In this document: piece after piece, positions 1-23,696 of the stretch | How the letters are laid out: each line of letters begins with the position of its first letter | Numbering within the stretch: position 1 is the first letter of the stretch | Assembly (NCBI RefSeq): GCF_000091665.1 | Contig: NC_000909.1 | Coordinates: 1,342,117-1,374,116 of the forward strand | Direction: 5' to 3' | Length of the DNA stretch: 32,000 nucleotides | Origin: Methanocaldococcus jannaschii DSM 2661 | GTDB lineage: Archaea > AGJL01 > Methanococci > Methanococcales > Methanocaldococcaceae | Translations under genes and position numbers: made by a program | Notes under the pieces: generated by a model | Seen by the model: the letters and a program-made list of their open reading frames with translations, nothing else | Told to the model about the DNA's origin: nothing | Databases searched by the model: none

Positions 1-1
1 A

Positions 2-1684: not shown

Positions 1685-1690
1685 AACTAA

Positions 1691-1717
1691 TTTTCTTTAT
1701 TTTTTATAATTCTTTTT
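1691..1717 (+). terminator. Oligo-T terminator candidate after the first surface-protein gene
   Basis: TTTTCTTTATTTTTTATAATTCTTTTT starts 7 nt after the stop. Confidence 0.4.
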
Positions 1718-1782
1718 CTAAATTCAAATATGATTTTTGACATTAAGTTAATTTTATCGATATTATATGGGTGATGTGGGGC

Positions 1783-4734
1783 ATGCCAAATATAAAATTA
1801 AAATTCATATATTTATGTATTTTACTGTTCGTATTTATGGCATCAATGTTAAACAGTGTTTCTGGATTAAAAACAATATTCTACGATGATTTTGAAAATT
1901 GGAGTGGGTGGTATAACTACAGTAGTGGGGCTGTAGAGCAATCTTCTAATTATGCACATTCAGGAATATATTCCCTTAGAAAGTTTCTAAATGATGACCC
2001 AAATGGTGGATACAAACTAATTGGGAAGGAAATTGGAAGGGATATTGTAATGGAAGGTTGGATTTATAGACCTTTGCCATATGTTAGCGGAAGATGGGAT
2101 AGAATAGGTATTGAGGACGAGAATTTCAACGGATACTCTATAAGAATAGAGCACGACTATAACAAAATTGCAATAGAAACTCGAGAAAATGGTATTGCTG
2201 TAAATACTTTAGTAATAACTAACTGGAATCCTCCAGAAAATCAGTGGTATTATTTTAAGTTTTATATCTACTCAAATGGAACTTTAAGATTAGAAGTTTA
2301 TTATGAGAATGGTTCATTAGGAGCTACTGTCTCAGCAATAGATAACATCTATACTAAGTTCGATAGAGTTGTTGTGCATGGAGGACAAGATTACTATGTT
2401 GATGATTTGAGGATTTCAGATTTATATCCTCCACTAAGGGTAAGATATATTGAAGAGTACAACGCAACTGCTACTGTGGATGGAACAGGAAAAACAAACT
2501 ATTCCTATGGTTTAACGGGACATATCATTATTGAAAATACTGCCCCTTATAAAGAAGATACTTTAAACGATGTGTGGGTAGCAGTGGATATAAAAAATAA
2601 TGCAAGTGGTTTGAGATTAGTTTATAATGGAACTCCAAAAGGGGTTTTTATTGAGAGTTCTGCTCCTGCTTATACAAACTTACCAAATGCAAACACATAC
2701 ATACACATCCCAATACTACCAAATAACAGCTATGTGGAATATGAGTTTGATATCGATGCATCTCAAACCCTACCAATATTAGTAAATGAAACTTACGATG
2801 TTACAAAAATACCAGCAAATAAAATGTCAGAATGGACTGTAAATTTAATTGTATATTTAAACAAAAATCTCGTTCCTAATGGAGAAAATGTCAATGTTAA
2901 TGTTATAAAATATCTAAGTAATGGGCAGTTTTATGATAACTTTGAAAATTGGACTGGTTGGAATCAGTATAAGAACGGGATAGTTCAATGGTCATCTATT
3001 CAATCTCATTCTGGAAATTACTCTTTAGAAAAATATGGGATTTCAACAAGTTTAAACAACGATCCAAATGGAGGGTACAAATTACTTCCAAAAGAAATTG
3101 GAAGGGATGTAGTTATAAGTGGATGGGTATATAGACCGAGCAACTGGGGAGGAGGCCCTATAGACAGGATTGGTTTGGAGGATGAGAATTTTGATGGATA
3201 TTCATTTGAGGTAAATCACTACAGTAATTACATATCAATTGATAGAAGAACTAATGGAAATCCTACAGAAATTAGTCCTGAAGTTTATTGGAATCCTCCA
3301 GAGGATGAATGGTATTACTTCGAACTAAAAATTTATTCAAATGGAACAATAACATTCTCAACTTATTATCAAAATGGTTCCTTAGCCGCAACTGTCTCAA
3401 CAATAGACAATACCTATACAAAGTTTGATAGGGTTGTTATTCATGGAGGTTATGTTTATTATGTTGATGATTTGGAAGTGAATTCAAAAAACTTCGACTT
3501 TTATGGAGATAAAAACTGGAAGTATCTTGAAATAACATCTGCAAATTCAAGTGAAGGAACAGCAGTTTTATTTGATGGGGACTATTTCAAAAAAGATTAC
3601 AATACCTCAAATCTAAATGCAATAAATTGGACAAATATTACCTTAAATTGGAGTAATGATAGTGCAACTTTGGTATTTAATGTATTGGGAAATTATTCAT
3701 ATAGTGAAAGGGATAATATTTTAGCAAAGTATGGATTTGCTAAAATACTATTTAATTACAATGGGACCAATACAAACACATCTATAAAAGGTGTTTATGC
3801 ATCTGGAAGTTATAGTATTTCAACAGATCATGGAACTACGGGAGAAATAAACATTTGGATAGAAAATGTAACATTTAAAAATGATGCAAAATCATATTCC
3901 TTTAATTTAACGAATCTTAATATATGGGCAGTAAATAAATCTGCTTATGAGTTGTATTGGAATCCATTTAACAAATCTATCTGGATAGATGGGAGTAATT
4001 ACACTATAACTCCAAATATTGACATACCTCCAGGAGAAGTATGGAACTCTAAAACCTACAACTTCACATTTAGTGGAGTTCCAATCGTTTGGGCAAACTG
4101 CTCATTTACACTGTCAAAAAAAGATTATATCCTTTTAAATGAAGTAAGTCAAATAGGAAGTTCCTATGTTGTTGTTGAGGAGATTTATGTTGTGGGTAGT
4201 TATTTGATTAAGGTGACTAAGCATATTGTTCCGGATGCGGATGGGACTTATGATATTTATATAGTTGTGGAGAATATTGGTAGTGTGAAGACTCCTGAGT
4301 ATGTGTATGTTTATGATTTGATTCCTAAGAACTTCACCGTCTCAGATGAGTGGGTTAATCAATCAAGTATGTTGATTGCTGAAGGAAATCACACCATTAC
4401 AACAAATCCAAGGTATAATTTAAGCATGTGGTGGGCGTTACATGCAATATATCCAGGAGCAGATGGGGACGGTAACTGGAACGACACTGCTGAAATACTT
4501 GCAAATAAAACAGTAGTCATACACTACAAACTAAACGGAACTGGCGAATTCTACCCAAGCGACGCATTTATCGTTGGTATCGACCCTACAAACTCACTAC
4601 TACCAACAACCTCACCAAAAATAACAACAGTAGCCGGAACAGTAGAAAACAACTTTGAGATATTTTTAATACTGATAAACGTTATCTTTGGATTAGGTAT
4701 ATTAACAAAGAGGAATATAAGGAATAATAAATAA
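1783..4734 (+). CDS. Large secreted, TM-anchored surface glycoprotein with two ConA/LamG-like jelly-roll domains and the same C-terminal module as the upstream paralog
   Basis: ORF 1771..4734. GGGTGAT at 1769-1775 favours ATG 1783 (MPNIKLKFIYLCILLFVFMASMLNSVSG, a signal peptide); GTG 1771 and ATG 1774 are alternatives. An internally duplicated ~185-aa domain is present. The C-terminal 166 aa are identical to the upstream gene. The tail is hydrophobic then basic (IFLILINVIFGLGIL-KRNIRNNK). Confidence 0.85.
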   Translation: MPNIKLKFIYLCILLFVFMASMLNSVSGLKTIFYDDFENWSGWYNYSSGAVEQSSNYAHSGIYSLRKFLNDDPNGGYKLIGKEIGRDIVMEGWIYRPLPYVSGRWDRIGIEDENFNGYSIRIEHDYNKIAIETRENGIAVNTLVITNWNPPENQWYYFKFYIYSNGTLRLEVYYENGSLGATVSAIDNIYTKFDRVVVHGGQDYYVDDLRISDLYPPLRVRYIEEYNATATVDGTGKTNYSYGLTGHIIIENTAPYKEDTLNDVWVAVDIKNNASGLRLVYNGTPKGVFIESSAPAYTNLPNANTYIHIPILPNNSYVEYEFDIDASQTLPILVNETYDVTKIPANKMSEWTVNLIVYLNKNLVPNGENVNVNVIKYLSNGQFYDNFENWTGWNQYKNGIVQWSSIQSHSGNYSLEKYGISTSLNNDPNGGYKLLPKEIGRDVVISGWVYRPSNWGGGPIDRIGLEDENFDGYSFEVNHYSNYISIDRRTNGNPTEISPEVYWNPPEDEWYYFELKIYSNGTITFSTYYQNGSLAATVSTIDNTYTKFDRVVIHGGYVYYVDDLEVNSKNFDFYGDKNWKYLEITSANSSEGTAVLFDGDYFKKDYNTSNLNAINWTNITLNWSNDSATLVFNVLGNYSYSERDNILAKYGFAKILFNYNGTNTNTSIKGVYASGSYSISTDHGTTGEINIWIENVTFKNDAKSYSFNLTNLNIWAVNKSAYELYWNPFNKSIWIDGSNYTITPNIDIPPGEVWNSKTYNFTFSGVPIVWANCSFTLSKKDYILLNEVSQIGSSYVVVEEIYVVGSYLIKVTKHIVPDADGTYDIYIVVENIGSVKTPEYVYVYDLIPKNFTVSDEWVNQSSMLIAEGNHTITTNPRYNLSMWWALHAIYPGADGDGNWNDTAEILANKTVVIHYKLNGTGEFYPSDAFIVGIDPTNSLLPTTSPKITTVAGTVENNFEIFLILINVIFGLGILTKRNIRNNK
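4156..4654 (+). repeat. Second copy of the 499-bp identical block
   Basis: See 1118-1616. Confidence 0.9.
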
Positions 4735-4743
4735 AGTTGGGGG

Positions 4744-5453
4744 ATGATGATGAAGAGATTTGCATTACTCTTTATTTTCCTTGCATTTATAACACCAACT
4801 TTTGCAGATGTTGAGGAAATAACAAACTATAATATGACCGTTGATTTAACAAAAAATCCTGCACATATAACAAATGTTATAACTATTCAAAATCTTGTTA
4901 AGTATCCTCTTGTTCCAGGAATTGGGGAGTTAAGATTACAAAAAGAAGAGTCAAAGAAAATACTGATTATTCCAATACCATTTACAAAAGAAAAAAACCT
5001 GTAAAGATTGAGAATTTAAGGGGTTATTATATAATTGGGGATAAAAAATATCCAATGGATGTAAATGTCTCTTATAAAGATACCTATTCAGTTATAACAT
5101 ATCAAGTATGGGAGCCAATAGATGGTGGAAAAAATATAACTCTAATAATTGAATATGATGCTGATATTGTTGATAATGGAATATTGTTTAAAACTGTCTC
5201 AATTCCTATTGGAGGGGATTTGAATATAAAAAACTTCCATATAAACTTTGTCTCTCCTTATTATCTAACCTACCAAGAACCAGATGGAAATAATTTCCAA
5301 ATCCCTAAAAAAACTTTGCTTATTATAAATGCTGAGTTTTCAATATTGCCATTACCGAAACTTCCAGTTCATGGATATGTGGTGTTTTGGTTAAGCATAT
5401 TGTGTATATTAATAATAATATTTGTCTATACTGAGTTGAGAAGAAAAAAATAA
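4744..5453 (+). pseudogene. Small signal-peptide plus C-terminal-TM surface protein, split into ORFs 4744..5004 and 5055..5453 by a frameshift at an A7 tract
   Basis: The first ORF carries the signal peptide (MMMKRFALLFIFLAFITPTFA). The second carries the TM anchor (VVFWLSILCILIIIFVYT-ELRRKK). The frame of the second ORF is open upstream through 4980-5054. One extra A in the A7 run at 4991-4997 would join them: ...FTKEKKPVKIENLRGYYIIGDKKYPMDVNV... Confidence 0.55.
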
Positions 5454-5510
5454 AGAAAATAAGGAAGATAAGAAGAATAAAAACTAATAATCTCAATAAT
5501 TGTCTAATAT

Positions 5511-5533
5511 TTGTTCTATAAATTTTATATACT
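5511..5533 (+). promoter_or_regulatory. Promoter-region motif shared with 14283-14305 (TTGTTCTATAAATyTTAwATACT), including a TATA-like core
   Basis: TTGTTCTATAAATTTTATATACT lies upstream of the giant gene and TTGTTCTATAAATCTTAAATACT upstream of the next gene; 21/23 positions are identical. Each lies about 30-55 nt before its start codon. Confidence 0.5.
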
Positions 5534-8500: not shown

Positions 8501-11500
8501 ATTTTCAGTCCAACCAAATTATCAGGAAAAGACTGGAAATGTTGGAGAAGAGATATTTTACAATATAACATTATATAACTTTGGAGTTGGAGGAAGATTT
8601 GATATAAATATAACCTACTTAACGAAAGGATGGACAACGAAAATATACAACAACTCCATTTTAATAGCTGAAGATGCCAATGGGGATGGAATCTGGGATT
8701 ATATAAACCCAAATTATGATTTAAACTCAAATAATTTGCCAGATATCTATGTGCCAACTGGAGAGATAAATTTAACTGTCTCAAAGACAATTCCTTCAAC
8801 AGCCCCATTAGGAGAGATTGATACAACTACATTAAAATTTGTTAATATAAATAATCCATCAATATTTGGAAAAACAACATTCCAGACATCAACACCATAT
8901 CCTCCTTCAGTTCAAAAAACTTTCTATTTACATGGAGATACTTTAAGAACTCTAAATACTTCAATACCTACAACAATTAACAACTACACAACAATTAATA
9001 GCAATTCATTAGCTTCATGGATACAATATCCAAGATTCGCAGACAACTTTACAGTTGTAGGAAAAATTCCAATTTTGCTTTATATAAATGACCCAAACGT
9101 TATATTTGGAACTGAAATGCATAAAATTGTTGTTTCGTTAATGGCCACAAATGGAATTGATTCCTTTACTTTAGGAAGTGATGTTGAGTATCTATACTTA
9201 GATGATACTATAAAATCTTACATTTTCAATATAACCTTAGATTCAATAATTACAATACCCAAAAACTACTATTTGGTTTTGAGAGTGGAAAATCAAATAT
9301 CTTCTAACTCAATAAACATCTATCATAATTCAACATATCCATCCAATATAACGCTAAACACTACGACTTATGTTAATGTTTATAACATATTTTCAGATAA
9401 AAACGTTTATCTTCCAAATGAAAATGTTACAATATTTGCAAATATTACAGACCCTATTGGTTCTTACGATATAAGCGGGGCAAATATAACTGTGTATTAT
9501 CCAAACGGTAGTGTATATATCAACTCTTCAATGCTACTACAGGAAATAGATAAAAACTCCCCATCACTTTGGAAGCTCTATAATTACTCATTTAGCCTCC
9601 CAGAGTCAGGAAAATATCTTATTACAATAACTGGAATCGAATCTAATGGTGTAATTTCGAAGAAAAACTATACCATATACTGCGGATATGAAATTCAGGG
9701 CTATGTAAAAGAGGACTTTGGAACCCTTGGAAAAGAAGATAGTGAAGATAAAGGAATTTATGGGGTTAATGTATCTCTACTTGAAGACAGCAATAATGAT
9801 GGTATTCCAGATATTGGAGATACCATAGTAAATTCAACAACAACAGATATTTTTGGTCATTATTCCTTCTTAGTTTATAACTCCTCAAAAACTTACTTTG
9901 TGGTAGTGAATTCAAGAACTGTAGGAACTACAAGAGGTTTAAACCCTCAATATAGCAAAAATGACATCTGGGCTGAAGAAACATATCAAACAGTATATAC
10001 TCCAATAAACTCTTCTCAATGGATTGCCAACGGAAATGCTTCAATATTCCCAGATAAGCTTCTATTAACAACAGATGATTATGGTGAAGCAGGTAGTGTT
10101 TGGTATTACAAGCCGGTTAATCTATCTGAGGATTTGGTTGTTGAGTTTTATGCGTATTTGGGAGACAATCCTGATGGAGCAGATGGTATAACCTTTACCT
10201 TGCAATCGTTGGGAACTAACGAATTAGGTGGAACTGGAGGAGATTTGGGTTATGGTGGAATTTCTCCGAGTGTAGCGGTTGAAGTTGATACTTGGCTCAA
10301 CGATTTTGATGCTCCAGCAACAACCGACCATATTGCAATAGATGTTAACGGCAACATAAACCACACTTACAACTCCTTAACTTACCCAACACCAAACCCT
10401 TACGATTTAGGTAATGTTGAGGATGGAAGAGAACACTTAATAAAAATCGTATGGAATGCAACAACAAAAACACTCCAAGTATATTTCGATGGCAATTTAT
10501 CATTAACATGGAATAAGGATATAACCCAAATTATAGGAAACTCAGCTTACTTCGGATTCACAGGAGGAACGGGAGGAGCAAAAAATCTCCAGTATGTTAA
10601 GCCAATATACGTAAAAAATGGGGATGGGTATATAATAAATCCAACTTATGGAGTAGTTGAGATGTTTGGAGGAAGAGACCCTAATGAAGAAGATAATTGG
10701 GAAGATGGAAAATATGAACACTACTGTTTGATAAATCTAAATTCATATAGTGGGAAAAATATAACATTTGGATTCAGCTTTGATGTAATAACAAATACGA
10801 AATCTACGGGGCAGGGTAGTTTTTCCCAATTTATAAAAAATGCAAATGCAATTTATGGGAAAGATGAGAGTTATTTCAGAATACCAAATATCGACGCAAA
10901 GAATGGAAATCACTACATTTATACAAGTGGAAATAAAATATTAGACAATTTGACTATTGTCAATGGTTCAACTCAGATTAATGGAACCATCATTTTATCA
11001 GGATTACAATGGATAGCTAACGGTAACGCATACATAAATAATTCAAATAATCTAACTTTGATACTAACGCCTGATGACTACAACCAAAAAGGTAGTGTTT
11101 GGTATTACAAGCCGGTTAATCTATCTGAGGATTTGGTTGTTGAGTTTTATGCGTATTTGGGAGACAATCCTGATGGAGCAGATGGTATAACCTTTACCTT
11201 GCAATCGTTGGGGACTAACGAATTAGGTGGAACTGGAGGAGATTTGGGTTATGGTGGAATTTCTCCGAGTGTAGCGGTGGAGGTTGATACTTGGCTTAAC
11301 GATTTTGACAGCCCAGCAACAACCGACCATATTGCAATAGATGTTGATGGGAACTTAAATCACACTTACAACTCCTTAACTTACTCAACACCAAACCCAT
11401 ACGATTTAGGTAATGTTGAGGATGGAAGAGAACACTTAATAAAAATCGTATGGAATGCAACAACAAAAACACTCCAAGTATATTTCGATGGCAATTTAGC

Positions 11501-14270
11501 ATTAACATGGAATAAAGACATAACCCAAATTATAGGAAACTCAACTTATTTCGGATTCACAGGAGGAACAGGAGGAGCAAAAAACCTACAATACGTTAAG
11601 CCAACATATGTGAAAAATGGGGATAATGTTTTAAATCTCGAAGAAATATCTCCAAATCCAATTATTGACAATGTGGGGGCTGATACATACATTGGAAATA
11701 TATTCTTTGAAAATGTCAGTGTTGGAATATTAGGAAATGAAACTGGGCTAAATAATTTAACATTAAAGAGTTGTGGAATTTATGGAAAAATATTAAATGC
11801 AGGGGTTAAGTTAGTTGATTATGATTGGAGTTTGCAGAATTATCCATTGTATATTGACAATTTAACAATAAACGCCTCTGGAGGATATGGAATTTCAATG
11901 TTGAACAAAATATGGGCTATGTTGTATAACTCTCAAATATCTTTAAAAAACGGTGTAGGGATTTATTGGGCAAACTGGGCTGGTGGTTTTGGAAACATAA
12001 CAATCTATAATATAACTATAAGCTCATGTAATCAAGGATTGGTTTTATATAAAGATGGAAATGGAATAAAACTAATAAACTCTCAGATTAAGAATTCCGT
12101 TTATGAGGGAGTGTATTCAAAGAACTCAACTTTAGAAATACTTAACTCTTCAATAATTAATAACTCTATTGGAATCTATGCAAATATATCAAGCATATTG
12201 GTGAATAATTCCCTTATATATAAAAATAGATATGAAGGTTTATTATTAGAGAATTCATCCTCCTCAATATTGAATTCAAATATAATGAACAATAGCATAG
12301 GAATATATTTAAAAGAAAACTACATCTCAAAAATTCAAAAATCGAATATTTCATATAATGCCTATGGAATTGAAATAGTTAATTCATCTAACGTATATAT
12401 AAATTCATCAAATATATTTAATGCAAGCACAGATGGAATTGCAATATTTAATGGAGAAAATGTAAGTGTTGAAAACTCTCTATTGTATAATAACAATTAC
12501 TCAATACTCTCTTATGGTAATTTATCAAACCTCAGTGTGTTGAATTCATTATTAAGAGATTCAATAAACAACAGTATTGATATTGAAGTCCCTTCTGATG
12601 GATTTTTGAATAATTTAAAACTTTATAACTCAAGTGTATTAAACAGCGGAAGCTATGGGTTGTTTATCTATTCGTTGGGAAGTGCTTCAAATGTAAATAT
12701 ATCCAAATCACTAATAAACGGCTCCTACAAAGATGGAATTTACATCTATGGAGTAAATGCTATAAACATAGTTAATAATAACATAACCAATAACGGTTTG
12801 ATTGGAGGAGACCCAGCAGGAAGTGGAATAAAAATCAGTGGAAACTATACCAAGGGAGTTTTAATTTTAAATAACAATATATCTCACAACTTGGGTAATG
12901 GTATTTCTTTAGAAGGGTTGTGGAGCAGAACATTATGTGATGTTAAAGTTGAAAACAACATAATTTCAAATAATGGTATTGAAGAAAATAGCGGTAATGG
13001 AATATACATAGGAGGAAGAGTTGAGAATGTCTCTATATTTAATAACACGATTCAATACAGCGATGCTCAGGCAATTTTAATTCAAGAGGCAAATGGATGG
13101 AATTCTTGGGATTGGATTGGAACAAATATATCCATTATAAACAACACAATTCAATACAATGGATTAACTGTCACAATAGGAAATATAACCGCAGGAATAA
13201 CTGTTGGGGCTTATGGAGTTTATAATCAAGATAATGGATATATAATAATAGAGGGTAATAAAATAATAAACAACAATCTCTGTCCAAATCCAACTTATGG
13301 TGGAAAAGTTGGAGGAATTGAGGTTTATGGGTTAAATGAGAGTTGGATTAGCTTAGAATTTAATATCTCAAAGAATATCATAGCAAACAACTCTGCCTAT
13401 GGAATTTTAATAGGGGCAAGCAAAGACATCAACATAATTAATAACACAATCTTCAACAATGAAAAGGGAATTACAATTCCAAACTGGGATTTTGTTCCTT
13501 ACAATATAATAATCTCCAAAAACTCAATTTACAACAACTCTCTACTCGGAATTGACTTAGATGATGATAATGTAACTCTAAATGATGGGCTATTGAACTA
13601 TAATGAAGCAAATCATGGTATTGACTATCCAATAATTACCTATGCTGAGTTAAACGGAGATAACTTAACAGTTAAAGGATACATTGGAAATGGAACTGGC
13701 AGTTCAAACTTTGCAAATGCGGTAGTTGAGATTTATTTAGTTAAAAATTTAAGTGGCGGAGATAATTTAATAGGAAATAATATTTCTTCAGATGGCACTG
13801 TATTGAATGATACCTATGGAGAAAGTTGGATTTATTTGGGAAGTTTGATTGCTGATAGTAATGGATTTTTCAGTGGAACAATAAATGTTTCTGGAAAAGG
13901 GGTTGGAGATGAATCTTTACTAACTGCAACAGCAACGATAAAAGGTATTGGAACATCAGAATTTGGAAGAAACTATCTCTTAATTAAAAAGTTCTTCAAC
14001 ATAACTGGAACTATAGTAATGCTTCCAAACGGCTACAACATAACAATAAAATCATATAATACAACAAGAGATGTTTATGTTTATTGGTATAAGCCAGATA
14101 ATATTGAAGTAATCAATATTTCAGGGGATTATGATGAAAATGGAACCTATGGAAACACCTACTGGTTTAAATTTAATGTGATAAATGCAAATGAGACAAT
14201 GAACATATCAATAACAACCAATATAACAACAGTTGAGGGACTTATTATCGGTATTGACCCAAAAAAATAA
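5586..14270 (+). CDS. Giant (2894 aa) secreted multidomain adhesin-like protein: signal peptide, tandem ~80-aa repeats, Cna-B/SdrD-like domain, two L-type lectin domains, long parallel beta-helix, no TM anchor
   Basis: Single uninterrupted ORF with an N-terminal hydrophobic signal (ISIFVFTILLLSNVSLG). Lectin signature: GADGITF...GGDLGYGG...AVEVDTW...FGFTGGTGG, present twice. Repeated NNSIGIY / N-x-I-x-x-N beta-helix turns span aa ~2030-2660. Very high N-x-S/T density. Confidence 0.9.
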   Translation: MKSYLKNISIFVFTILLLSNVSLGLNVSTTNNNSNFELNNSLIYKLNNSLTNTTNNSGSIIINNTTDTNKEKNECYLNITINGYRVIVKTNGEVFGFANKTPLKFIKIGDNEYIISPIVLNVPIEIYSKFNDKILHRTVILNYTKPEKEKKETNIKKEELHYLNVSFNNFKLIVKTNGKPYAKYLDLNIKVKTKKIKKHEYLVYPLILNKTIIIYAKFKNETLNRTIFLNYSIEENTTTNKTVILKNVYFPSEKIVIKTNFKPHTAYIVTPNNKIIHLKVHKKGKFYILSTKLKKNVILGNYSVVVDGIKKTFAVDYYKINAKLIDNRFIVGNVSYYVKEPKFITCIVDKKEINISLINGAFEIPLDYLIPKLNISKPEKIKKIILICGNAKEKIKVKFKNKEEIKKLISYDPVNKEIIIKLEGSEKEIKKLLKRYEKRKKYKISKIVKIYNYSIVEIKLKADKEILKDYNLPENILNTTEIVKKISSNKIRVEVNNKVDGVWYRFSCKIPKGYRVKEIVGDDGRVIRNNISINRLTGEVIGEVRWYIENNTLYFYDDPIYGYDISLIPPAPNHSIAVELSYNGQDYGGCGQISAIVFPYNKEDDETTVATYDHAGRTGDYNYANNIDAYAGSKIAIKYTSGALTRQYGVLGTAGSLGWWTYYYLSEINRTDIPLNTVPNGILESVIITDMYAPWNNNELNITQKVIIRGNNKWFATIYYIKNPTTKTYTNLKFFQGMDWNFRGSWWGDDAYYNSIDDVVYGYDSNAPVGDIQYGGFKSNIPSYEHDVNLYWSTWSDIRYDNLNNDSSYEGDAGTALAWTKDSLKPGEIWVVPIIWGLGYNYTDMMNEINMGLSQLYDTGVKSIDYPNNGDSFNPNIGPIIYINSTIALYGLVDAYNLNVSINITQINGTYIYTNSTLINLSVPYEEEKLVSFPVNISNMPYGAYNITIKTNLPNDQNTSNDEKSIIIYITSFSVQPNYQEKTGNVGEEIFYNITLYNFGVGGRFDINITYLTKGWTTKIYNNSILIAEDANGDGIWDYINPNYDLNSNNLPDIYVPTGEINLTVSKTIPSTAPLGEIDTTTLKFVNINNPSIFGKTTFQTSTPYPPSVQKTFYLHGDTLRTLNTSIPTTINNYTTINSNSLASWIQYPRFADNFTVVGKIPILLYINDPNVIFGTEMHKIVVSLMATNGIDSFTLGSDVEYLYLDDTIKSYIFNITLDSIITIPKNYYLVLRVENQISSNSINIYHNSTYPSNITLNTTTYVNVYNIFSDKNVYLPNENVTIFANITDPIGSYDISGANITVYYPNGSVYINSSMLLQEIDKNSPSLWKLYNYSFSLPESGKYLITITGIESNGVISKKNYTIYCGYEIQGYVKEDFGTLGKEDSEDKGIYGVNVSLLEDSNNDGIPDIGDTIVNSTTTDIFGHYSFLVYNSSKTYFVVVNSRTVGTTRGLNPQYSKNDIWAEETYQTVYTPINSSQWIANGNASIFPDKLLLTTDDYGEAGSVWYYKPVNLSEDLVVEFYAYLGDNPDGADGITFTLQSLGTNELGGTGGDLGYGGISPSVAVEVDTWLNDFDAPATTDHIAIDVNGNINHTYNSLTYPTPNPYDLGNVEDGREHLIKIVWNATTKTLQVYFDGNLSLTWNKDITQIIGNSAYFGFTGGTGGAKNLQYVKPIYVKNGDGYIINPTYGVVEMFGGRDPNEEDNWEDGKYEHYCLINLNSYSGKNITFGFSFDVITNTKSTGQGSFSQFIKNANAIYGKDESYFRIPNIDAKNGNHYIYTSGNKILDNLTIVNGSTQINGTIILSGLQWIANGNAYINNSNNLTLILTPDDYNQKGSVWYYKPVNLSEDLVVEFYAYLGDNPDGADGITFTLQSLGTNELGGTGGDLGYGGISPSVAVEVDTWLNDFDSPATTDHIAIDVDGNLNHTYNSLTYSTPNPYDLGNVEDGREHLIKIVWNATTKTLQVYFDGNLALTWNKDITQIIGNSTYFGFTGGTGGAKNLQYVKPTYVKNGDNVLNLEEISPNPIIDNVGADTYIGNIFFENVSVGILGNETGLNNLTLKSCGIYGKILNAGVKLVDYDWSLQNYPLYIDNLTINASGGYGISMLNKIWAMLYNSQISLKNGVGIYWANWAGGFGNITIYNITISSCNQGLVLYKDGNGIKLINSQIKNSVYEGVYSKNSTLEILNSSIINNSIGIYANISSILVNNSLIYKNRYEGLLLENSSSSILNSNIMNNSIGIYLKENYISKIQKSNISYNAYGIEIVNSSNVYINSSNIFNASTDGIAIFNGENVSVENSLLYNNNYSILSYGNLSNLSVLNSLLRDSINNSIDIEVPSDGFLNNLKLYNSSVLNSGSYGLFIYSLGSASNVNISKSLINGSYKDGIYIYGVNAINIVNNNITNNGLIGGDPAGSGIKISGNYTKGVLILNNNISHNLGNGISLEGLWSRTLCDVKVENNIISNNGIEENSGNGIYIGGRVENVSIFNNTIQYSDAQAILIQEANGWNSWDWIGTNISIINNTIQYNGLTVTIGNITAGITVGAYGVYNQDNGYIIIEGNKIINNNLCPNPTYGGKVGGIEVYGLNESWISLEFNISKNIIANNSAYGILIGASKDINIINNTIFNNEKGITIPNWDFVPYNIIISKNSIYNNSLLGIDLDDDNVTLNDGLLNYNEANHGIDYPIITYAELNGDNLTVKGYIGNGTGSSNFANAVVEIYLVKNLSGGDNLIGNNISSDGTVLNDTYGESWIYLGSLIADSNGFFSGTINVSGKGVGDESLLTATATIKGIGTSEFGRNYLLIKKFFNITGTIVMLPNGYNITIKSYNTTRDVYVYWYKPDNIEVINISGDYDENGTYGNTYWFKFNVINANETMNISITTNITTVEGLIIGIDPKK
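5808..6290 (+). repeat. Two tandem ~80-aa protein repeats near the N-terminus of the giant protein (5808-6062 and 6063-6290)
   Basis: CYLNITINGYRVIVKTNGEVFGF...EYIISPIVLNVPIEIYSKFNDKILHRTVILNYT aligns with HYLNVSFNNFKLIVKTNGKPYAK...EYLVYPLILNKTIIIYAKFKNETLNRTIFLNYS. The similarity is at protein level only. Confidence 0.7.
10017..10625 (+). repeat. L-type (legume-like) lectin domain, copy 1, inside the giant ORF
   Basis: SQWIANGNA...GSVWYYKPVNLSEDLVVEFYAYLGDNPDGADGITFTLQS...GGDLGYGGISPSVAVEVDTWLNDFD...DHIAIDVNG...EDGREHLIKIVWNATTKTLQVYFDG...AYFGFTGGTGGAKNLQYV. Highly similar at DNA level to 11007-11624. Confidence 0.85.
11007..11624 (+). repeat. L-type lectin domain, copy 2, inside the giant ORF
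   Basis: Same domain about 999 nt downstream of copy 1. Nt 11090-11212 are identical to 10091-10213 by eye. The rest has scattered substitutions, many of them synonymous. Confidence 0.85.
11670..13565 (+). other. Right-handed parallel beta-helix region (PbH1/NosD-like repeats) of the giant protein
   Basis: Dozens of ~22-25-aa turns such as NSxIxNNSIGIYxxxSS, NNITNNGL, ISHNLGNGISLEG and IISNNGIEENSGNGIYIGG. They end in IYNNSLLGIDLDDDNVTLND, the typical exit of such helices. Confidence 0.75.
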
Positions 14271-14282
14271 TTCGTCAAAAAA

Positions 14283-14305
14283 TTGTTCTATAAATCTTAA
14301 ATACT
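14283..14305 (+). promoter_or_regulatory. Second copy of the shared promoter-region motif
   Basis: See 5511-5533. It sits in the 56-65-nt gap after the giant ORF, which has no T-run terminator. Confidence 0.5.
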
Positions 14306-14335
14306 TTAAAAAATAAAACCTAATAATTGGGGACC

Positions 14336-15787
14336 ATGAGATCGGTATATTTAATTATTATTATTATACTATTTTTTGCATTTATTTCTTTAAGTTTTGG
14401 GGAAATATATGAGTATAGGGGGGTTGTATTTTATCCAAATGGTTCTCAAACAGTTGATGTATCTAAGTTACATATAGATTATGAAAATCCCGATGCTTTT
14501 AGCATCTATATATCTTATAGAAACTCCTCCTTTTATCTTCCATATTCAAAAAATATAACTCTTAATCTCCCCCCAAAAAAATTTAACATATCCATAACTA
14601 TATCTGCAAGTAGAATCAGCAGAGATGAATGGAGGGTATATTATAAAATAATCAATAACTATCCCTACAGTATCTTATTTAACATATCTTTTCCAGGAGG
14701 ATTTAACATTAAAAATGCATCAGTCTTAGTTCCTGCCAAGTCCTATAAAATAATAACTTTATCAAAAATACAAAATTCAAATATTTTATATTTCGGAGAT
14801 AGCAATATAAGTTTTGAAGTACCCGCTAAATTGATGATAAGATATTCTCTGCCAATACCATTTTCCATAATAAAGTCAAATAAAATTTTAAGTAATGGTT
14901 CTATTGAATGGACAGCTATTTATATAATAAAAAATGATAAGAATGTCTCTTTAAATGTAAATGCAAGCTATTGGGCTGTTGTTAATAATACAAAAATAGA
15001 TTTTGGTAATTATTCCTATATTATAGAACCTAATGAGAATGTATCACAGTCATTTAATATCACTTCAGATTATGTTCCTATTTTTTATCTTAAATTTTAT
15101 GCATGGCGAGATGTTTATGAAACTATAAAAATAAAACCAGCAATTAAGGTTGATAATTCATACATTATTGGAATAGGAAAAGTTGAAGGTTTAAGTTTTA
15201 ACATTCCATATTATAACTATATGGAAAGAGAAATAAAAAAGAAAAAAGAAGAAAAGGAAAACGAAGAGTCATCTAAAACTATAAACCAAATGCAGAGACA
15301 TAAAAAAGAAGAGAAGTCACAGACTCAGGAGACAAAAAAACCTTCTAAAAATGAGATGAATAAACAAGAGAAAGAAAGAAAGTACCCACTAATAATTGAA
15401 GAAAAATTTAAAAAAGTAGCTGCTGCTATAGCCACAGTTACAACTACTTCAATAACTGCTATGTTGATTCCTCCAATATTTAGGAGACGTTCATATATTG
15501 TTGATAAAGGGATTTTCTCAATTAAAGACCTTGAACTACTAAGTGGCACAGTATATGTTCCAGAGGGTTGTAAGTTAGGAAATATATTACCTGGAGGTAT
15601 AACTATTATTAAACTTACTGATGTAGAAAAAGACCTTGCAAGGGACTTACATGAAATTTATGATATTCCTCTAAATTCAGCAAAAGCCATTATACTGGGT
15701 GTTAAGTATGGAGGTAGAGTATTTTTAAGTGATAAAAAGGCGTATGATGTGGCAGTTGAAATAGGACTTGAAGCATATCTTTTTTAA
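14336..15787 (+). CDS. Type I membrane protein: signal peptide, ~290-aa ectodomain, Lys/Glu-rich linker, TM helix, ~95-aa cytoplasmic domain
   Basis: ORF 14327..15787 starts at TTG; ATG 14336 (MRSVYLIIIIILFFAFISLSFG) is the first ATG. Low-complexity KKKKEEKENEE...KQEKERK segment, then TM VAAAIATVTTTSITAMLIPPIF followed by RRR. I recognise no family. Confidence 0.75.
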   Translation: MRSVYLIIIIILFFAFISLSFGEIYEYRGVVFYPNGSQTVDVSKLHIDYENPDAFSIYISYRNSSFYLPYSKNITLNLPPKKFNISITISASRISRDEWRVYYKIINNYPYSILFNISFPGGFNIKNASVLVPAKSYKIITLSKIQNSNILYFGDSNISFEVPAKLMIRYSLPIPFSIIKSNKILSNGSIEWTAIYIIKNDKNVSLNVNASYWAVVNNTKIDFGNYSYIIEPNENVSQSFNITSDYVPIFYLKFYAWRDVYETIKIKPAIKVDNSYIIGIGKVEGLSFNIPYYNYMEREIKKKKEEKENEESSKTINQMQRHKKEEKSQTQETKKPSKNEMNKQEKERKYPLIIEEKFKKVAAAIATVTTTSITAMLIPPIFRRRSYIVDKGIFSIKDLELLSGTVYVPEGCKLGNILPGGITIIKLTDVEKDLARDLHEIYDIPLNSAKAIILGVKYGGRVFLSDKKAYDVAVEIGLEAYLF

Positions 15788-15802
15788 ATAGAGGTGAAGT
15801 AT

Positions 15803-16054
15803 GTGGTAGAAGAAAACAATAAAGAAATATTAATAAAATTGAAGAAAATTAGAAAAATGCAAAGGAGAAGAACGCTCATTGGTTCATTTTTAGTCTCAAC
15901 ATCCATAATAATTTCTGAAATTTCAGTGTTTATATTTGTTGGTGTTTTTAATATAGACATAAGCTTTGGATTGTTATTATTGTTTATTTCGTTAATTTTT
16001 TTATCGTTAGGGCTCTATTTAATCATGTATCCTCCACCTATAGTCATAGATTAG
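15803..16054 (+). CDS. Small two-TM membrane protein
   Basis: ORF 15794..16054. GAGGTGA at 15791-15797 contains GTG 15794, so the in-frame GTG 15803 (5 nt after the SD) is the more plausible start. A basic stretch KKIRKMQRRR is followed by two hydrophobic helices. It sits 6 nt after the upstream gene and 7 nt before the downstream gene. Confidence 0.55.
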   Translation: MVEENNKEILIKLKKIRKMQRRRTLIGSFLVSTSIIISEISVFIFVGVFNIDISFGLLLLFISLIFLSLGLYLIMYPPPIVID

Positions 16055-16061
16055 TGAAATC

Positions 16062-17237
16062 ATGAAAAAGGACACTTTATTACTTATAATTTTAATCTTA
16101 TTTTGCATCGTTCATGTTTATGGTATTTATGTACATATTTATGGTATTAATGTTAGCTTAGAAAATGTTAGTCAATACCTTTACAACACTACGGTTTATC
16201 TTTCTTATGAGAATGGAACTCCATGTTTTTATATTGGAGAGAAAAAAGAATTCGTGATTATTCCTCCATATATAAAAGTTGATAGAGACATAGCTCCTTT
16301 AATTAAAAAACTAAGATTTAAAATAGAGAATAAAAGTTATAACCTTATCATTACAAAGAAAAATGTAAATACAAACAAGATGGCTATTATTTTTACTTCA
16401 ATAAATGGTTCGAGAGAAGTTAATGGCAATAAGACAATTATCTGGATAAAAGACCCACTCAAATTAAAACAATCAGAGGTTGAGGCATTATATGAATTAC
16501 CAGAAAAAGGAGAGGTTATAGCAAGATATAAAGACGGAAAACCAGCGGCGATAAAGATAAATAATAAAATATATGTTGGTTTTAAGCCAGATGAGGATGT
16601 TTTAGCTAATCTTATTTATATACATATAGTTAAGAAAACATCAAATCCTCTGCCCTATATACTTTTTACTGTTTTCTTAACTCTTGCATCTTTAATGCTA
16701 ACTTTTCAAGAAACCCTAAAAAAGAAGTTTTTGGAGCTAATATCTGCACTAGCATCAGTAAAAGTATTTATCCTCTCTCGTATAAATCTTCTTGATGAAG
16801 AAAAAGTCCTTCTAAATGACACAAGAAGAGAAATTTACAATTATATTTTAGACAATCCTGGATGTCATTTAAGAGAACTTTCTAAAAACCTAAATAAACC
16901 AGTATCAACACTTACGTGGCATTTAAGAATATTAGAAAAAGCAAATCTAATTAAAAGTAAAAAATTTGGTAATCGATTAATTTACTATCCAGCAGATATG
17001 GATATGAGGGATTTGCCACTGTTATATTTAAAAAATGAAACGCAAAAAAGCATATTTGAATATTTATTAAAAAGTCCTGCTCATTTAAGAAAGATTGCTA
17101 AAGATTTGAATTTGAATGTTGAAACTGTAAGGTATAATTTAAAAAAACTGGAAAATCTTGGAATTGTAAAATCTAAAGAAGAGGGAAACAGAATAGTATA
17201 TTATATAAATGAATCTATCTTAAAGTTTCATAAATAA
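16062..17237 (+). CDS. Membrane-tethered transcription regulator: N-terminal signal/anchor, ~165-aa ectodomain, TM helix, two tandem ArsR-like winged helix-turn-helix domains
   Basis: Hydrophobic N-terminus [16 protein letters not shown] and second [21 protein letters not shown]. wHTH 1: [56 protein letters not shown]. wHTH 2: [55 protein letters not shown]. Confidence 0.8.
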
Positions 17238-17808
17238 AGTTATATTTCTTATATTTTTCCAAGTTATTTAAAATTTCCTGTAAAATGTTGTCTAATTGAT
17301 TTAAACAATCTTCAAAGCTTTTTTCATTAACTACTACAAAATCAGCCAATGCAATAGCATGTCCAATACTAAATCCTAACTCCCTCAAGTCCCTCTCTAC
17401 AAATACTTCCCAGTTTGCTGAATCATCTTCCCTTCCTCTTTTTTTCAATCTCTCAAATCTTGTTAATGGAGAAGAGTGAATGGCTATTAAAACCAAAGGT
17501 TTATGTTTTCTAAAATAATTAACCTCATATAAGCTCCTTATACCTTCAACAATAACTATTTCTTTATCTTTTAAATTTTCTTCTATATATTTTAGACATG
17601 CAACTGCAATTGCCTCATTTCCAAACTCCTCTCTTAGCTTTATAGCTGTATTTCCAACATTTTCTGGAGTTAATTCTAAGCCTCTTTTTTTTGTTTCATA
17701 TCTAACAACGTCTCCCATGGAAACTATTGGTAGATTATATTTTTTAGCAATTTCATAAGCTGAGCTTTTTCCCGCTCCTGGCATTCCTGTAATACCTATC
17801 AACAGCAT
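17215..17808 (-). CDS. P-loop nucleotide kinase-like protein (dephospho-CoA kinase / adenylate kinase-like fold; UPF0200-type)
   Basis: Walker A motif [12 protein letters not shown] at the N-terminus, ~197 aa, small-kinase layout. GTGAAACC lies before the ATG. Its 3' end overlaps the convergent upstream gene by 23 nt. Confidence 0.7.
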
Positions 17809-21195: not shown

Positions 21196-22236
21196 TTATA
21201 ACCTATCTTTTAATACAATATTGACATCAACTTGTTTATATACTCCTTGGTCGGAAACAACTTTTACAGGGATTTTAACAGTTGTTTCTCCACTTGGCTC
21301 TTCTTGGAAACCCATACTTGAACCAAAGAAGAAGAATATTTCTTTTGAAACTTTTTCTCCTTTATGTAATGTTCCAACATCCCATTCTGAAGTATAGAAC
21401 TTAGCATCGATTGGTGTTTTGTATTTGTAAAATGCTTGAGCAGTGTTCCATCCAATGAATTTTGTAGCTGTTAATGTATTTGTCCAGCTTGAATATGAAC
21501 CATTAACCGCACATGCATACCACATATTGTTGAATCCTCCTGCATACAACCTCATACTTTGGACATCATTTTGTGAATATGGCCATTTCTTAGCAGTTGT
21601 AACTGATAAATCTTTACTACCATCTACTGCTGCAACTCCAGTAACTGAGTTTGGAGCTAATATGTAGTATACACTTGTATAGTTGTTTCCATCATCTCCA
21701 GTCCATGTAGCATCTGGGTATATTCCAGTTCTATTTAATATACCTTTAAATGGAGTCCCATCATTTGTGCATAATAAATATGCATCATAGTTTTGTCCGT
21801 TGTAGTTTAATGTAATCTTTTTGAGTGTTAAACCAGCAACTTCTGTGGCTCCGTCACTTTCTATTTTTACATTTGTTAATGTCGAATCATAGTAGTTTTC
21901 TAAAGTTAATGGAACTGGAACGATTAATCTTTCATCATATGAGCCATAATCTGTTGTAGTCAAGTGAGAGAGTTTGTAATCTGGAGTAGGATATGTTAAA
22001 TCCAAATCTCCTTCAACATCAATTTCTTTTGGAACTCCAACACCTATGGCTCCTGCAGCGTAGGTTATTGTGGATGTTGTTCCTTCTAATGCTGACTGAG
22101 TACTTTGCTGGCTGTTATTAAATAATCCACTTCCCCATGCGTAGAATACTGCTCCTACGACTATTGTAACTCCTAACACGATTAATAAGGCTAAGATTGG
22201 AGAGATTGCTTTTTTGTTCTTCATCCATTCAAACAT
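21196..22236 (-). CDS. Large secreted protein with an archaeal type IV pilin N-terminal domain (class III signal peptide, KKA|ISP type)
   Basis: MFEWMKNKKAISPILALLIVLGVTIVVGAVFYAWGS is the K-K-A-I-S-P-I-[LI]-A motif plus hydrophobic helix typical of the archaeal pilin N-terminal domain. It is followed by a ~310-aa globular region. GAGGTGAT lies 5 nt before the ATG. Confidence 0.85.
   Translation of the reverse strand: MFEWMKNKKAISPILALLIVLGVTIVVGAVFYAWGSGLFNNSQQSTQSALEGTTSTITYAAGAIGVGVPKEIDVEGDLDLTYPTPDYKLSHLTTTDYGSYDERLIVPVPLTLENYYDSTLTNVKIESDGATEVAGLTLKKITLNYNGQNYDAYLLCTNDGTPFKGILNRTGIYPDATWTGDDGNNYTSVYYILAPNSVTGVAAVDGSKDLSVTTAKKWPYSQNDVQSMRLYAGGFNNMWYACAVNGSYSSWTNTLTATKFIGWNTAQAFYKYKTPIDAKFYTSEWDVGTLHKGEKVSKEIFFFFGSSMGFQEEPSGETTVKIPVKVVSDQGVYKQVDVNIVLKDRL
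22129..22215 (-). repeat. 87-bp block identical to 23515-23601 (pilin-type signal peptide and hydrophobic core)
   Basis: ACTTCCCCATGCGTAGAATACTGCTCCTACGACTATTGTAACTCCTAACACGATTAATAAGGCTAAGATTGGAGAGATTGCTTTTTT occurs in both genes at an offset of 1386 nt and encodes KKAISPILALLIVLGVTIVVGAVFYAWGS. Confidence 0.9.
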
Positions 22237-22303
22237 ATTACATCACCTCGTTCTTTCCTCGGGTATCCTATTACAGGAGACCGTCATTGGAATTAAATAT
22301 TAC

Positions 22304-22548: not shown

Positions 22549-23622
22549 CTACTCATCATCATAGACCGTAAATTTAACTTTAACTTCTTTAGTTACTCCT
22601 TCGTTAGATACAACTTTTAACGGAACTTCAAATGTCACATATCCATCATTTGTAGATCCTTTGTAGTTTGGCAAGTATAATGTATTGAAGAATAAGTAGG
22701 TTTTTACAGTTTTTTCTGAGTTCTTTGGTAATGTTCCTACAACATATTCTGGGTTGTTGAATAGTTTATCTAAGTATGTTGCAGAACTGCAGAACCATTG
22801 TGCAACCAATGTTCCACTTCCAAATCCTGGTTTTAATTCTTCTCCAGTAGCTGTGTATAACTTAACATTACTACAGTATGTTCCATAATATGGCCATGAA
22901 GTCTCTACAAGTGGAGCTACTCCAGTTGTTGTATTAACTGCATCCCAGCTGGAGTCTGATGTTGCACCAACTGAAGAAGCCAATTTTCCATAGGTGTCTC
23001 TTGTCTGATTCCATGCAATTACATACCCATTACTAACTTCAAACATTCCTGATTTATTTACGTATCCAACGAACAATGTTCCATCTTTCTTCAACAATTG
23101 ATAGTTGTCATTTAGGTGTAACCAGAATGCATAGAACTTTGCAGATATATCTTCAAAGGCATTTGTGTAAGTTCCACCCATATCAACTATTTTTGGGATT
23201 CCTCCTACAACTTTAACTCCAGTTAATTTATAATCTTGTGTGTCAATAGTTACTGGAATTTCCACAATAAATCTTTCGTCATAGAATACTGTGCCGTATG
23301 TTGAATTATAACATCCATTTGAAGTAGATGGCTTTGCAATTTTTCCGTTACCATTTGGATAGCCTAACCATGAATCACTATCATCAGCATCTTGGTATCT
23401 TATTTTGTCAATACATGTTGCTGCAACCCTAATTGCCCCAGCATCATAAAACATATTTGTTGCAGTCCCTTCAACTGCTGCCTGTGTCTTTTCTTGGCTG
23501 TTTCCGAATAAATTACTTCCCCATGCGTAGAATACTGCTCCTACGACTATTGTAACTCCTAACACGATTAATAAGGCTAAGATTGGAGAGATTGCTTTTT
23601 TATTCTTTAACCAGTCCATCAT
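22549..23622 (-). CDS. Large secreted protein with an archaeal type IV pilin N-terminal domain (paralog of 21196..22236)
   Basis: MMDWLKNKKAISPILALLIVLGVTIVVGAVFYAWGS. GAGGTGGGAAG precedes ATG 23622. The ORF track's longer start at 23673 adds MTVSHGGILEGSSRGGK, which I interpret as leader sequence (see findings). The C-terminal end ...EVPLKVVSNEGVTKEVKVKF resembles ...KIPVKVVSDQGVYKQVDVNI of the paralog. Confidence 0.8.
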   Translation of the reverse strand: MMDWLKNKKAISPILALLIVLGVTIVVGAVFYAWGSNLFGNSQEKTQAAVEGTATNMFYDAGAIRVAATCIDKIRYQDADDSDSWLGYPNGNGKIAKPSTSNGCYNSTYGTVFYDERFIVEIPVTIDTQDYKLTGVKVVGGIPKIVDMGGTYTNAFEDISAKFYAFWLHLNDNYQLLKKDGTLFVGYVNKSGMFEVSNGYVIAWNQTRDTYGKLASSVGATSDSSWDAVNTTTGVAPLVETSWPYYGTYCSNVKLYTATGEELKPGFGSGTLVAQWFCSSATYLDKLFNNPEYVVGTLPKNSEKTVKTYLFFNTLYLPNYKGSTNDGYVTFEVPLKVVSNEGVTKEVKVKFTVYDDE

Positions 23623-23686
23623 CTTCCCACCTCTACTACTTCCCTCAAGTATCCCACCATGGGAGACCGTCATCGGGAGTAATAAT

Positions 23687-23696
23687 TTTATATATT
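23687..23696 (-). promoter_or_regulatory. TATA box candidate for the 357/374-aa pilin-domain gene
   Basis: The coding strand reads ATATATAAAA, ~14 nt upstream of the conserved ATGACGGTCTCC block. Confidence 0.5.

Follow-up and report, generated by a model that had tools for sequence, protein, structure and literature searches.

A three-gene unit of Methanocaldococcus jannaschii DSM 2661, made up of MJ1397, a gene for a two-helix miniprotein (ORF2) and MJ1398, encodes a conserved membrane module, and we hold with moderate confidence that MJ1398 is a transmembrane regulator dedicated to the surface-protein island in which the unit lies. We analysed the unit within a 32,000-nt stretch of DNA, here called the window (NC_000909.1, positions 1,342,117-1,374,116, forward strand). 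The architecture of the module, the distribution of its families, its synteny and the conservation of a promoter box are direct observations. Exact database look-up identified open reading frame (ORF) 1 as MJ1397 (Q58792), ORF3 as MJ1398 (Q58793, 'Uncharacterized HTH-type transcriptional regulator', HTH being helix-turn-helix) and the 2894-aa ORF directly before the unit as MJ1396 (Q58791). The gaps between the three genes are 6 nt (ORF1-ORF2) and 7 nt (ORF2-ORF3) in a mechanical ORF list, and both these coordinates and the look-up agree with a preliminary description of this DNA, which had placed three ORFs with 6-7-nt gaps directly after a giant lectin gene. Rfam and tRNA scans gave no match within the three-gene region. 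Feature coordinates are collected in Table 1.

The triad is conserved beside surface-protein genes

We recovered loci through MJ1398 homologues and compared them by BLAST. ORF1-, ORF2- and ORF3-like genes occur together at every locus where the region is visible, and the triad is intact at all 12 comparable loci. The triad loci come from Methanocaldococcus (L001, L002 and L005), Methanothermococcus (L003, L004 and L012), Methanotorris igneus (L011) and Archaeoglobus-like or unassigned contigs (L006, L009, L010, L013, L014 and L015). Giant genes, AF2028-like genes or both adjoin the triad in 10 of the 12 loci with a visible neighbourhood. A larger set recurs in the window and at L004, L009, L011 (M. 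igneus, in permuted order), L012, L013 and L014, comprising an AF2028-like anchored protein, an anchored protein of roughly 240 aa, a giant beta-helix protein and the triad; L005, L006 and L010 carry a giant gene and the triad, with the remainder beyond the contig view. The preliminary description had regarded the triad as embedded in a surface-protein island and had looked to other genomes for the same linkage. Its neighbours in the window, MJ1396 and the AF2028-like anchored proteins, bear out the first point, and the counts above the second. MJ1398 homologues are the only DNA-binding proteins constantly linked at the island loci.

Some triad loci have features of their own. The 3' end of MJ1398 overlaps the 3' end of a convergent AAA_17 kinase-like gene (17215-17808, minus strand) by 23 nt (17215-17237), and this overlap is kept at other Methanocaldococcus loci. 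At L004 the ORF2 homologue (132 aa, 8565-8963) is separated from that of MJ1398 by a 195-aa ORF (9120-9707, plus strand), which, judged by eye only, looked transposase-like. In L015 (1-7659) the triad stands alone behind genes for SecY, the STT3/AglB oligosaccharyltransferase and Sec61-beta, a secretion and glycosylation neighbourhood that may be coincidental.

MJ1398 couples a predicted extracytoplasmic domain to tandem wHTH domains

MJ1398 begins with a hydrophobic segment (residues 6-24), after which small residues (YG/SA) are conserved in the alignment of homologues, and because of these residues the N-terminus is probably a cleaved signal peptide. The M. jannaschii signal peptide has seven residues more than that of the FS406-22 orthologue (residues 17-30, 16110-16150), as if a short stretch at the predicted cleavage site had been duplicated in frame. 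The following N-domain has 13 invariant residues (Y41, Y49, P54, F56, W128, P132, L133, G150, A154, G159, A162, G173 and N183), and its profile matched only 15 proteins among 1.84 billion cluster representatives. The 11 full-length proteins among these (352-523 aa) all carry the domain N-terminally, as MJ1398 does, and four newly found ones that were read individually also have a transmembrane (TM) segment and winged helix-turn-helix (wHTH) motifs. By this profile search, the N-domain appears specific to the MJ1398 family.

The cytoplasmic side is predicted to consist of two wHTH domains. Pfam family HTH_24 matched MJ1398 in two stretches (E=1.6e-18), HTH_5 (PF01022) scored 55.9 bits against a cutoff of 22, and NF033788 scored 72.1 against a cutoff of 55. 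Over 60 aa the two domains share 43% identity (E=5e-17), and therefore the tandem is read as an internal duplication. Their recognition-helix residues are invariant across 17 homologues, and Foldseek matched the wHTH region to CzrA/SmtB/ArsR repressors at a TM-score of about 0.65-0.7. The profile matches and hydrophobicity agree with the preliminary description of MJ1398 as a signal or anchor segment, an ectodomain of ~165 aa, a TM helix and two ArsR-like wHTH domains.

The orientation of these domains depends on the hydrophobic segments. The TM helix at 197-215 is hydrophobic in all 17 homologues and passes the Hessa insertion threshold in each (in MJ1398, Kyte-Doolittle 1.99, Hessa sum 0.1 kcal/mol). 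A third, weakly hydrophobic stretch at about 218-242, which the preliminary description had missed, registers as a Kyte-Doolittle segment at 223-244. If this helix spanned the membrane, the wHTH domains would lie outside with the N-domain and MJ1398 would not be a transcription factor, a reading that the Kyte-Doolittle segment and the 14-19 hydrophobic residues of the helix in Archaeoglobus-like homologues (Hessa sums 2.4-3.3) would allow. However, the helix contains K, R, E and S in Methanococcales, where its Hessa sums exceed 4 kcal/mol and fail the insertion threshold, and it has only 11 hydrophobic residues in the homologue P0064. It is also amphipathic (Eisenberg mean hydrophobicity 0.2-0.3 and moment 0.3-0.5, compared with a mean of 0.7-0.9 for the TM helix), the KKK-rich loop ahead of it fits the cytoplasmic side, and AlphaFold2 (AF2) models the helix at a predicted local distance difference test (pLDDT) score of 43-57. 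Glycosylation sequons are enriched in the N-domain (87 observed versus 31 expected, 2.8-fold) rather than in the wHTH part (29 versus 18, 1.6-fold). We also know of no extracellular role for ArsR-type wHTH domains with conserved recognition helices, and consider a spanning third helix very improbable indeed. The type I topology, with the N-domain outside and the wHTH domains in the cytoplasm, is favoured because the third helix is amphipathic and weak, the loop ahead of it is Lys-rich, sequons are in excess in the N-domain and the start resembles a signal peptide. The preliminary description had singled out the side of the membrane on which the wHTH domains lie as decisive, and hydrophobicity, Hessa sums and sequons all favour the cytoplasm.

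A two-half-site box is conserved in island promoters

The promoter of the triad carries an element that recurs ahead of MJ1396: TTGTTCTATAAAT is found exactly twice in the window (5511 and 14283), and the two copies agree at 21 of 23 positions. The preliminary description had noted this shared motif, which we can extend to a conserved box in island promoters. Its consensus, tGTC-N6-7-TGTyCTAyAAA, comprises two direct half-sites 10-11 bp apart that abut the TATA box. The regular expression GTC.{5,8}TGT..TA.AA gave 14 matches in 232 kb on both strands, 11 of them no more than about 205 nt ahead of an island gene, and the box recurs in the island promoters of five or more genera or lineages. An alignment of 12 promoters (A5) has 14 invariant columns (T8, C9, A12, T17, G18, T19, T22, A23, A25, A26 and TATA positions) and loses its similarity past the TATA box. 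In M. okinawensis the box stands in three promoters, those of a 1510-aa gene, an AF2028-like gene and the triad; L004 has two boxes and M. igneus one, before an ORF3-led operon. The lone triad of L015 retains the box, and in L009 and L013 the leading island gene has a diverged form of it upstream. None of the first eight loci examined has TTGTTCTATAAAT as an exact 13-mer, and degenerate patterns were needed to reveal the conservation. In metagenome contigs the pattern GTCNNAAAAWTGTNCTANAAA proved too degenerate, matching at least 120 unrelated contigs, none encoding island homologues among the matches listed. It is from cross-genome conservation, as seen in these sequence comparisons, that the box takes its significance.

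The half-sites are direct, not inverted, and stand one helical turn apart. Such spacing and orientation would suit two non-identical wHTH domains arranged head to tail in a single chain. Relative to the TATA box the island box is upstream, and it overlaps or immediately precedes the position of the BRE (the transcription factor B recognition element). For the two boxed promoters of the window, transcription starts are predicted at about 5553 and about 14326.

At L014 the MJ1398 homologue has a copy of the island box (GTCCAGAAGATGTACTATAAAG, 11081-11110, plus strand) at its 3' end, ahead of genes at 11131-11989. The boxed gene is a TFIIB/TFB (transcription factor B) paralogue called in two pieces (173 + 119 aa), and a small HTH_20 protein is encoded after it; a dedicated TFB beside the regulator could be relevant to the reading of box promoters. 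A different conserved palindromic element, TCCACAGA(y)(r)TGTGGATTAT, precedes the first AF2028-like gene at two loci that lack the island box there, on the plus strand at about 1035-1060 of L004 (Methanothermococcus sp. Ax23) and about 6905-6930 of L011 (M. igneus).

The box might instead be read by another factor, or be a lineage-specific strong BRE/TATA variant, with MJ1398 regulating elsewhere or having a non-transcriptional role. Since the proximal half-site overlaps the BRE position and abuts the TATA box, part of the conservation may be basal promoter signal, and the boxed TFB paralogue next to the L014 regulator hints at a dedicated TFB. Yet 11 of the 14 matches are island promoters, the distal GTC, about 20 nt ahead of the TATA box, lies outside a BRE, the box is retained where the triad stands alone, and no other DNA-binding gene is consistently linked. 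We judge this explanation improbable.

MJ1397 and ORF2 are conserved candidate membrane partners

The N-terminus of MJ1397 is hydrophobic and signal-peptide-like (residues 7-25), all 14 of its N-glycosylation sequons fall within residues 38-244, and a marginal, Thr-rich TM segment at 364-382 (about 361-385) is followed by RRR. In the AF2 model (mean pLDDT 66.6) the ectodomain is all-beta, residues 291-384 are disordered and comprise a Lys/Glu-rich stalk (291-360) and the poorly modelled TM region, and the C-terminal domain is alpha/beta at pLDDT 75-90. Segments and model thus match the type I membrane protein of the preliminary description, with an ectodomain, a Lys/Glu-rich spacer, a TM helix and a cytoplasmic domain. 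Structural matches of the ectodomain are generic tandem beta-sandwiches only (transglutaminase C-terminal barrels, RbmA and the AglB C-terminal domain) and point to no specific function. The C-terminal domain is the best-conserved part of the protein, with an invariant IPLNSAKA motif in the alignment of homologues, and has no relatives in Pfam or the PDB.

The D/E pattern of this cytoplasmic domain raised the possibility of a PIN-like nuclease, which was rejected: conservation does not extend to its acidic residues (P, N, A, K, A and G are the invariant ones), and no Pfam or PDB match exists. Matches to designed repeat proteins were artefacts of a 15-residue helix, and a match to TM0160 was not significant (E=1.2).

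ORF2 has TM helices at 33-51 and 60-78 behind a very basic N-terminus that is predicted to be cytoplasmic, as expected of the two-TM miniprotein proposed earlier. Its conserved features are a Glu within TM1, GLYL in TM2 and a C-terminal PPIV(D/E). The start is more likely to be the GTG at 15803 than that at 15794, because the latter falls inside a 7-base Shine-Dalgarno match, GAGGTGA (15790-15796). One public annotation gives ORF2 only 65 aa; the basic N-terminal helix is conserved, including in orthologues that lack the internal Met of that call, and this orthologue conservation supports a predicted length of about 83-86 aa.

A model for regulation from the membrane

On the favoured reading, MJ1398 would be exported via a cleaved signal peptide, with its N-domain facing outward, the TM and amphipathic helices holding the membrane and the wHTH pair in the cytoplasm. 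The tandem domains may then bind the box from the membrane, one domain per half-site (tGTC... and TGTyCTA). With the box in the triad's own promoter and in those of the giant adhesin and AF2028-like genes, autoregulation would be expected alongside control of the island. Archaeal activators such as Ptr2, EarA and TFB-RF1 bind upstream of the TATA box, and because the island box has the same position, activation by recruitment of TFB and TATA-binding protein (TBP) would be favoured over repression, although more weakly than the binding itself. MJ1397, with its Ig-like ectodomains, long stalk and cytoplasmic domain, and ORF2 may act as co-sensor or modulator by analogy with ToxS for ToxR and VtrC for VtrA, and together could inform MJ1398 of the condition of the giant protein or the surface.

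Several observations weigh against this reading. In the window alone the degenerate motif is not significant, as 14 of 100 shuffles give at least two matches. The MJ1396 copy has its distal half-site 1 nt further off and an A/T-variant spacer, and the region upstream of the MJ1394-like gene w_1771 has no box. The third helix of MJ1398, as described above, is borderline hydrophobic in Archaeoglobus-like homologues. L002 and L015 keep the triad without a neighbouring giant gene, such that targets may differ or lie elsewhere. Finally, neither the fold of the MJ1398 N-domain nor the MJ1397 cytoplasmic domain has recognisable relatives, and therefore no ligand can be proposed.

The giant protein may be connected to the triad physically as well. 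MJ1396 ends in ..LIIGIDPKK (14250-14270) with no membrane anchor, whereas its AF2028-like neighbours have the same ..VGIDP.. motif and continue into a Ser/Thr/Pro linker and TM anchor (1560-1684 and 4610-4734), suggesting that the anchor of MJ1396 is supplied in trans, perhaps by MJ1397. The triad could thus be an anchoring and assembly platform for the giant adhesin, in which MJ1397 anchors in trans and MJ1398, rather than being a signal-responsive switch, tethers the island DNA or nucleoid to the membrane, so that the 2894-aa protein is transcribed, translated and secreted in a coupled way ('transertion'). This would account for the unanchored GIDPKK end and for the Ig-like ectodomains of MJ1397 on their long disordered stalk, and the giant stop and ORF1 start overlap by 4 nt in L009, L010, L013 and L014, four lineages in which translational coupling is suggested. 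For a transmembrane regulator system in bacteria, transertion has been put forward (PMC9977878). However, triad and box persist without an adjacent giant gene in L002 and L015, and a mere DNA tether would have no need of the conserved extracytoplasmic domain of MJ1398. The platform is compatible with regulation rather than exclusive of it, but as a complete account we think it has a small chance of being right.

Anchoring and regulation by MJ1398 can be combined in a self-contained trans-envelope feedback circuit. MJ1397 would hold MJ1396 at the surface and relay the occupancy or load of the adhesin through its own cytoplasmic domain and ORF2 to membrane-bound MJ1398, whose two non-identical wHTH domains would read the TATA-fused direct-repeat operator and recruit the basal machinery, so that the locus would be transcribed at the membrane and its products secreted co-translationally. 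This circuit is speculative and, taken whole, rather unlikely. If true, it would give archaea a first 'co-component' system comparable to ToxRS, of type I and with an operator matched to an intramolecular wHTH dimer.

The signal might also, as the preliminary description had suggested, be passed by regulated proteolysis, with cleavage in or near the TM helix releasing a soluble tandem wHTH fragment that acts on promoters. The linker and juxtamembrane helix of MJ1398 are poorly ordered in the AF2 model, but no protease gene is linked to the triad in any of 13 loci and a type I orientation is unlike that of site-2 protease substrates. Such cleavage is common for bacterial membrane-tethered regulators (PMC7593790), and a heading in PMC12107092 refers to cleavage, apparently of ArnR; ToxR, CadC and similar proteins, however, act while membrane-bound (PMC10269533). 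The MJ1398 sequence itself argues neither for nor against proteolysis, which we consider quite unlikely.

Comparison with known systems

Transmembrane transcription regulators (TTRs) are defined operationally as having a DNA-binding domain and at least one TM segment in one polypeptide, single-pass proteins being commonest (PMC10269533). Having a DNA-binding domain (HTH_24, HTH_5 and NF033788) and a predicted TM helix at 197-215, MJ1398 is by its sequence a TTR in this sense. For its putative regulation of transcription from the membrane, the box conserved in island promoters gives indirect support. A census found 1,384 archaeal TTRs in 367 of 404 species (PMC10269533, Demey et al. 2023). Against this census, a domain count, the N-domain of the MJ1398 family, its tandem wHTH, partners, island and operator are undescribed in the searchable text. 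The literature on MJ1395-MJ1398 and AF2028 likewise held nothing relevant in searchable text (AF2028 matches were reagent catalogue numbers), and HVO_0163 drew a single incidental mention.

The preliminary description had called the design ToxR/CadC-like in logic. ToxR/ToxS, TcpP/TcpH, VtrA/VtrC and CadC are membrane-bound regulators of surface or virulence genes with small membrane partners (PMC9214523, PMC7496328, PMC5430869), and MJ1398 shares with ToxR-like systems a membrane anchor, an extracytoplasmic domain and an operon that encodes further membrane proteins. The likeness is one of analogy, MJ1398 having no sequence homology to these proteins and not belonging to the ToxR/CadC family. 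The topology is the inverse: ToxR-like proteins are type II, with an N-terminal OmpR/PhoB-type wHTH, a single TM helix and a C-terminal periplasmic sensor, whereas MJ1398 has a signal peptide, ectodomain, TM helix and C-terminal tandem ArsR-type wHTH. Trans_reg_C is not among the best 25 of 33 Pfam matches of MJ1398 (E<=0.1), which are ArsR/MarR/TrmB-type or similar HTH families. The two conserved candidate partners encoded in the MJ1398 operon have no homology to ToxS or VtrC, and MJ1397 adds a conserved cytoplasmic domain.

Among archaeal proteins, ArnR and ArnR1 of Sulfolobus acidocaldarius are membrane-bound one-component regulators of the archaellum and type IV pili (PMC6396743; Lassak et al. 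2013 via PMC13286277). According to PMC12107092, ArnR starts with its wHTH, continues into a HAMP-like region and ends in two TM helices, leaving practically no ectodomain. Both it and MJ1398 are archaeal and membrane-bound, but domain order and content, family and phylum differ. The earlier statement that such regulators are poorly characterised in archaea holds in that few have been studied, but is too broad given the work on ArnR/ArnR1 (PMC6396743, PMC12107092) and the census (PMC10269533).

MJ1398 matches the ArsR/SmtB family (CzrA, SmtB and CadC of pI258) in wHTH fold and profile (PF01022, NF033788). In the 17-homologue alignment there is no conserved Cys pair or Cys/His site, and no alpha5 helix follows either wHTH; the one Cys of the NPGCHLRE stretch gives way to V, I, T or S in homologues. 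Because conserved ligands are missing from the alignment, MJ1398 is not a metal-sensing ArsR. ArsR/SmtB proteins are moreover soluble homodimers, formed through alpha1/alpha5, with metal sites, in contrast to the membrane-anchored MJ1398, which has two wHTH copies per chain instead of a dimer. Tandem winged-helix proteins (P. furiosus PF0095, ScpB, the SelB C-terminus and RPC34) have two consecutive domains, as does MJ1398, and align with it over 140-219 Foldseek columns, but at TM-scores of only 0.2-0.35, so a shared domain arrangement is not established, and none is membrane-anchored. In BlaI/MecI systems a Penicillinase_R repressor is paired with a linked M56 sensor protease of BlaR1 type; in MJ1398 a marginal Penicillinase_R match (28.8 bits versus a cutoff of 22.6) ranks under stronger ArsR-type matches, and none of the loci has a protease gene.

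The design itself is not new, because TTRs are reported in most archaeal species surveyed; what is new is the variant represented by the MJ1398 family. To our knowledge, ArnR/ArnR1 is the only archaeal membrane-bound transcription factor pair studied experimentally. Genome censuses point to about four such proteins per genome in archaea. The MJ1398 family offers a candidate operator of two half-sites fused to a TATA box, a small candidate regulon in the island and two conserved candidate partners, and M. jannaschii has in-vitro transcription and a genetic system. It could reveal how archaeal cell-surface events are coupled to expression of a giant adhesin, and could show how a regulator that stays in the membrane acts on the TBP/TFB machinery of archaea. 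If MJ1398 does not bind the box, the six-gene surface island would still be worth describing, and the finding would be an ordinary one.

Features of the island and window

Table 1. Features of the three-gene unit, its promoter box and the surrounding island (window coordinates; residues refer to the encoded protein).
Feature	Positions	Strand	Remarks
AF2028-like anchored surface proteins, two	partial ORF to 1684; 1771-4734	+	upstream island part (1-5453)
Split anchored protein of 243-264-aa type	4744-5004, 5055-5453	+	upstream island part
Box upstream of MJ1396	5502-5532	+	GTC at 5502; TTGTTCTATAAAT 5511-5523; consensus TATA box TTTATATA 5524-5531
MJ1396, giant secreted protein, 2894 aa	5586-14270	+	two L-type lectin modules and right-handed beta-helix repeats
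Box upstream of the triad	14274-14304	+	GTC 14274-14276; TTGTTCTATAAAT 14283-14295 holds proximal half-site; TATA-like CTTAAATA/C 14296-14304
ORF1, MJ1397	14327-15787	+	486 aa from TTG; ATG at 14336 likelier (RefSeq, 483 aa)
MJ1397 signal peptide	residues 1-25	+	hydrophobicity
MJ1397 two beta-sandwich ectodomains	about residues 26-290	+	AF2
MJ1397 cytoplasmic alpha/beta domain	residues 386-486 (15482-15784)	+	AF2, alignment
ORF2, two-TM hairpin miniprotein	15794-16054	+	ORF list; GTG 15803 probable start
ORF3, MJ1398, predicted transmembrane transcription regulator	16062-17237	+	391 aa
MJ1398 signal peptide, residues 1-28	16062-16145	+	MKK n-region, hydrophobic core, small residues (..YG) before mature N-terminus
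MJ1398 extracytoplasmic alpha/beta domain, residues 29-196	16146-16649	+	AF2 pLDDT 85-96
MJ1398 TM helix, residues 197-215	16650-16706	+	strong hydrophobicity, then KKK
MJ1398 juxtamembrane amphipathic helix, residues 218-242	16713-16787	+	probably not membrane-spanning
MJ1398 wHTH domain 1, residues 246-318	16797-17015	+	recognition helix with invariant S282, W286, H287
MJ1398 wHTH domain 2, residues 319-391	17016-17234	+	recognition helix with invariant E354, T355, R357

Outside the island, a 267-nt repeat of 76% identity (22035-22301 versus 23421-23687) covers the 5' parts of two adjacent minus-strand genes of 346 and 374 aa, which have no Pfam match and are probably paralogues. A lone CRISPR direct repeat (Rfam CRISPR-DR13, 50.7 bits) lies at 29391-29420 on the minus strand, with no array called around it.

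Within the island, ORFs 4744-5004 (86 aa) and 5055-5453 (132 aa) are in different frames and jointly match one 243-264-aa protein in L003, L004 and L009, so the M. jannaschii gene looks frameshifted, either as a pseudogene or through a sequencing error. The first AF2028-like gene extends past the left end of the window. Its C-terminal half and that of the second share at least 300 nt at 100% identity (1118-1417 versus 4156-4455, plus strand), which suggests a recent duplication or gene conversion. MJ1396 matches the Pfam families Lectin_L-type_dom (E=1.2e-99) and Beta_helix (E=1.4e-36), and its two L-type lectin modules form a direct repeat of 92% identity 999 nt apart (10063-10362 versus 11062-11361, plus strand), a recent internal tandem duplication.

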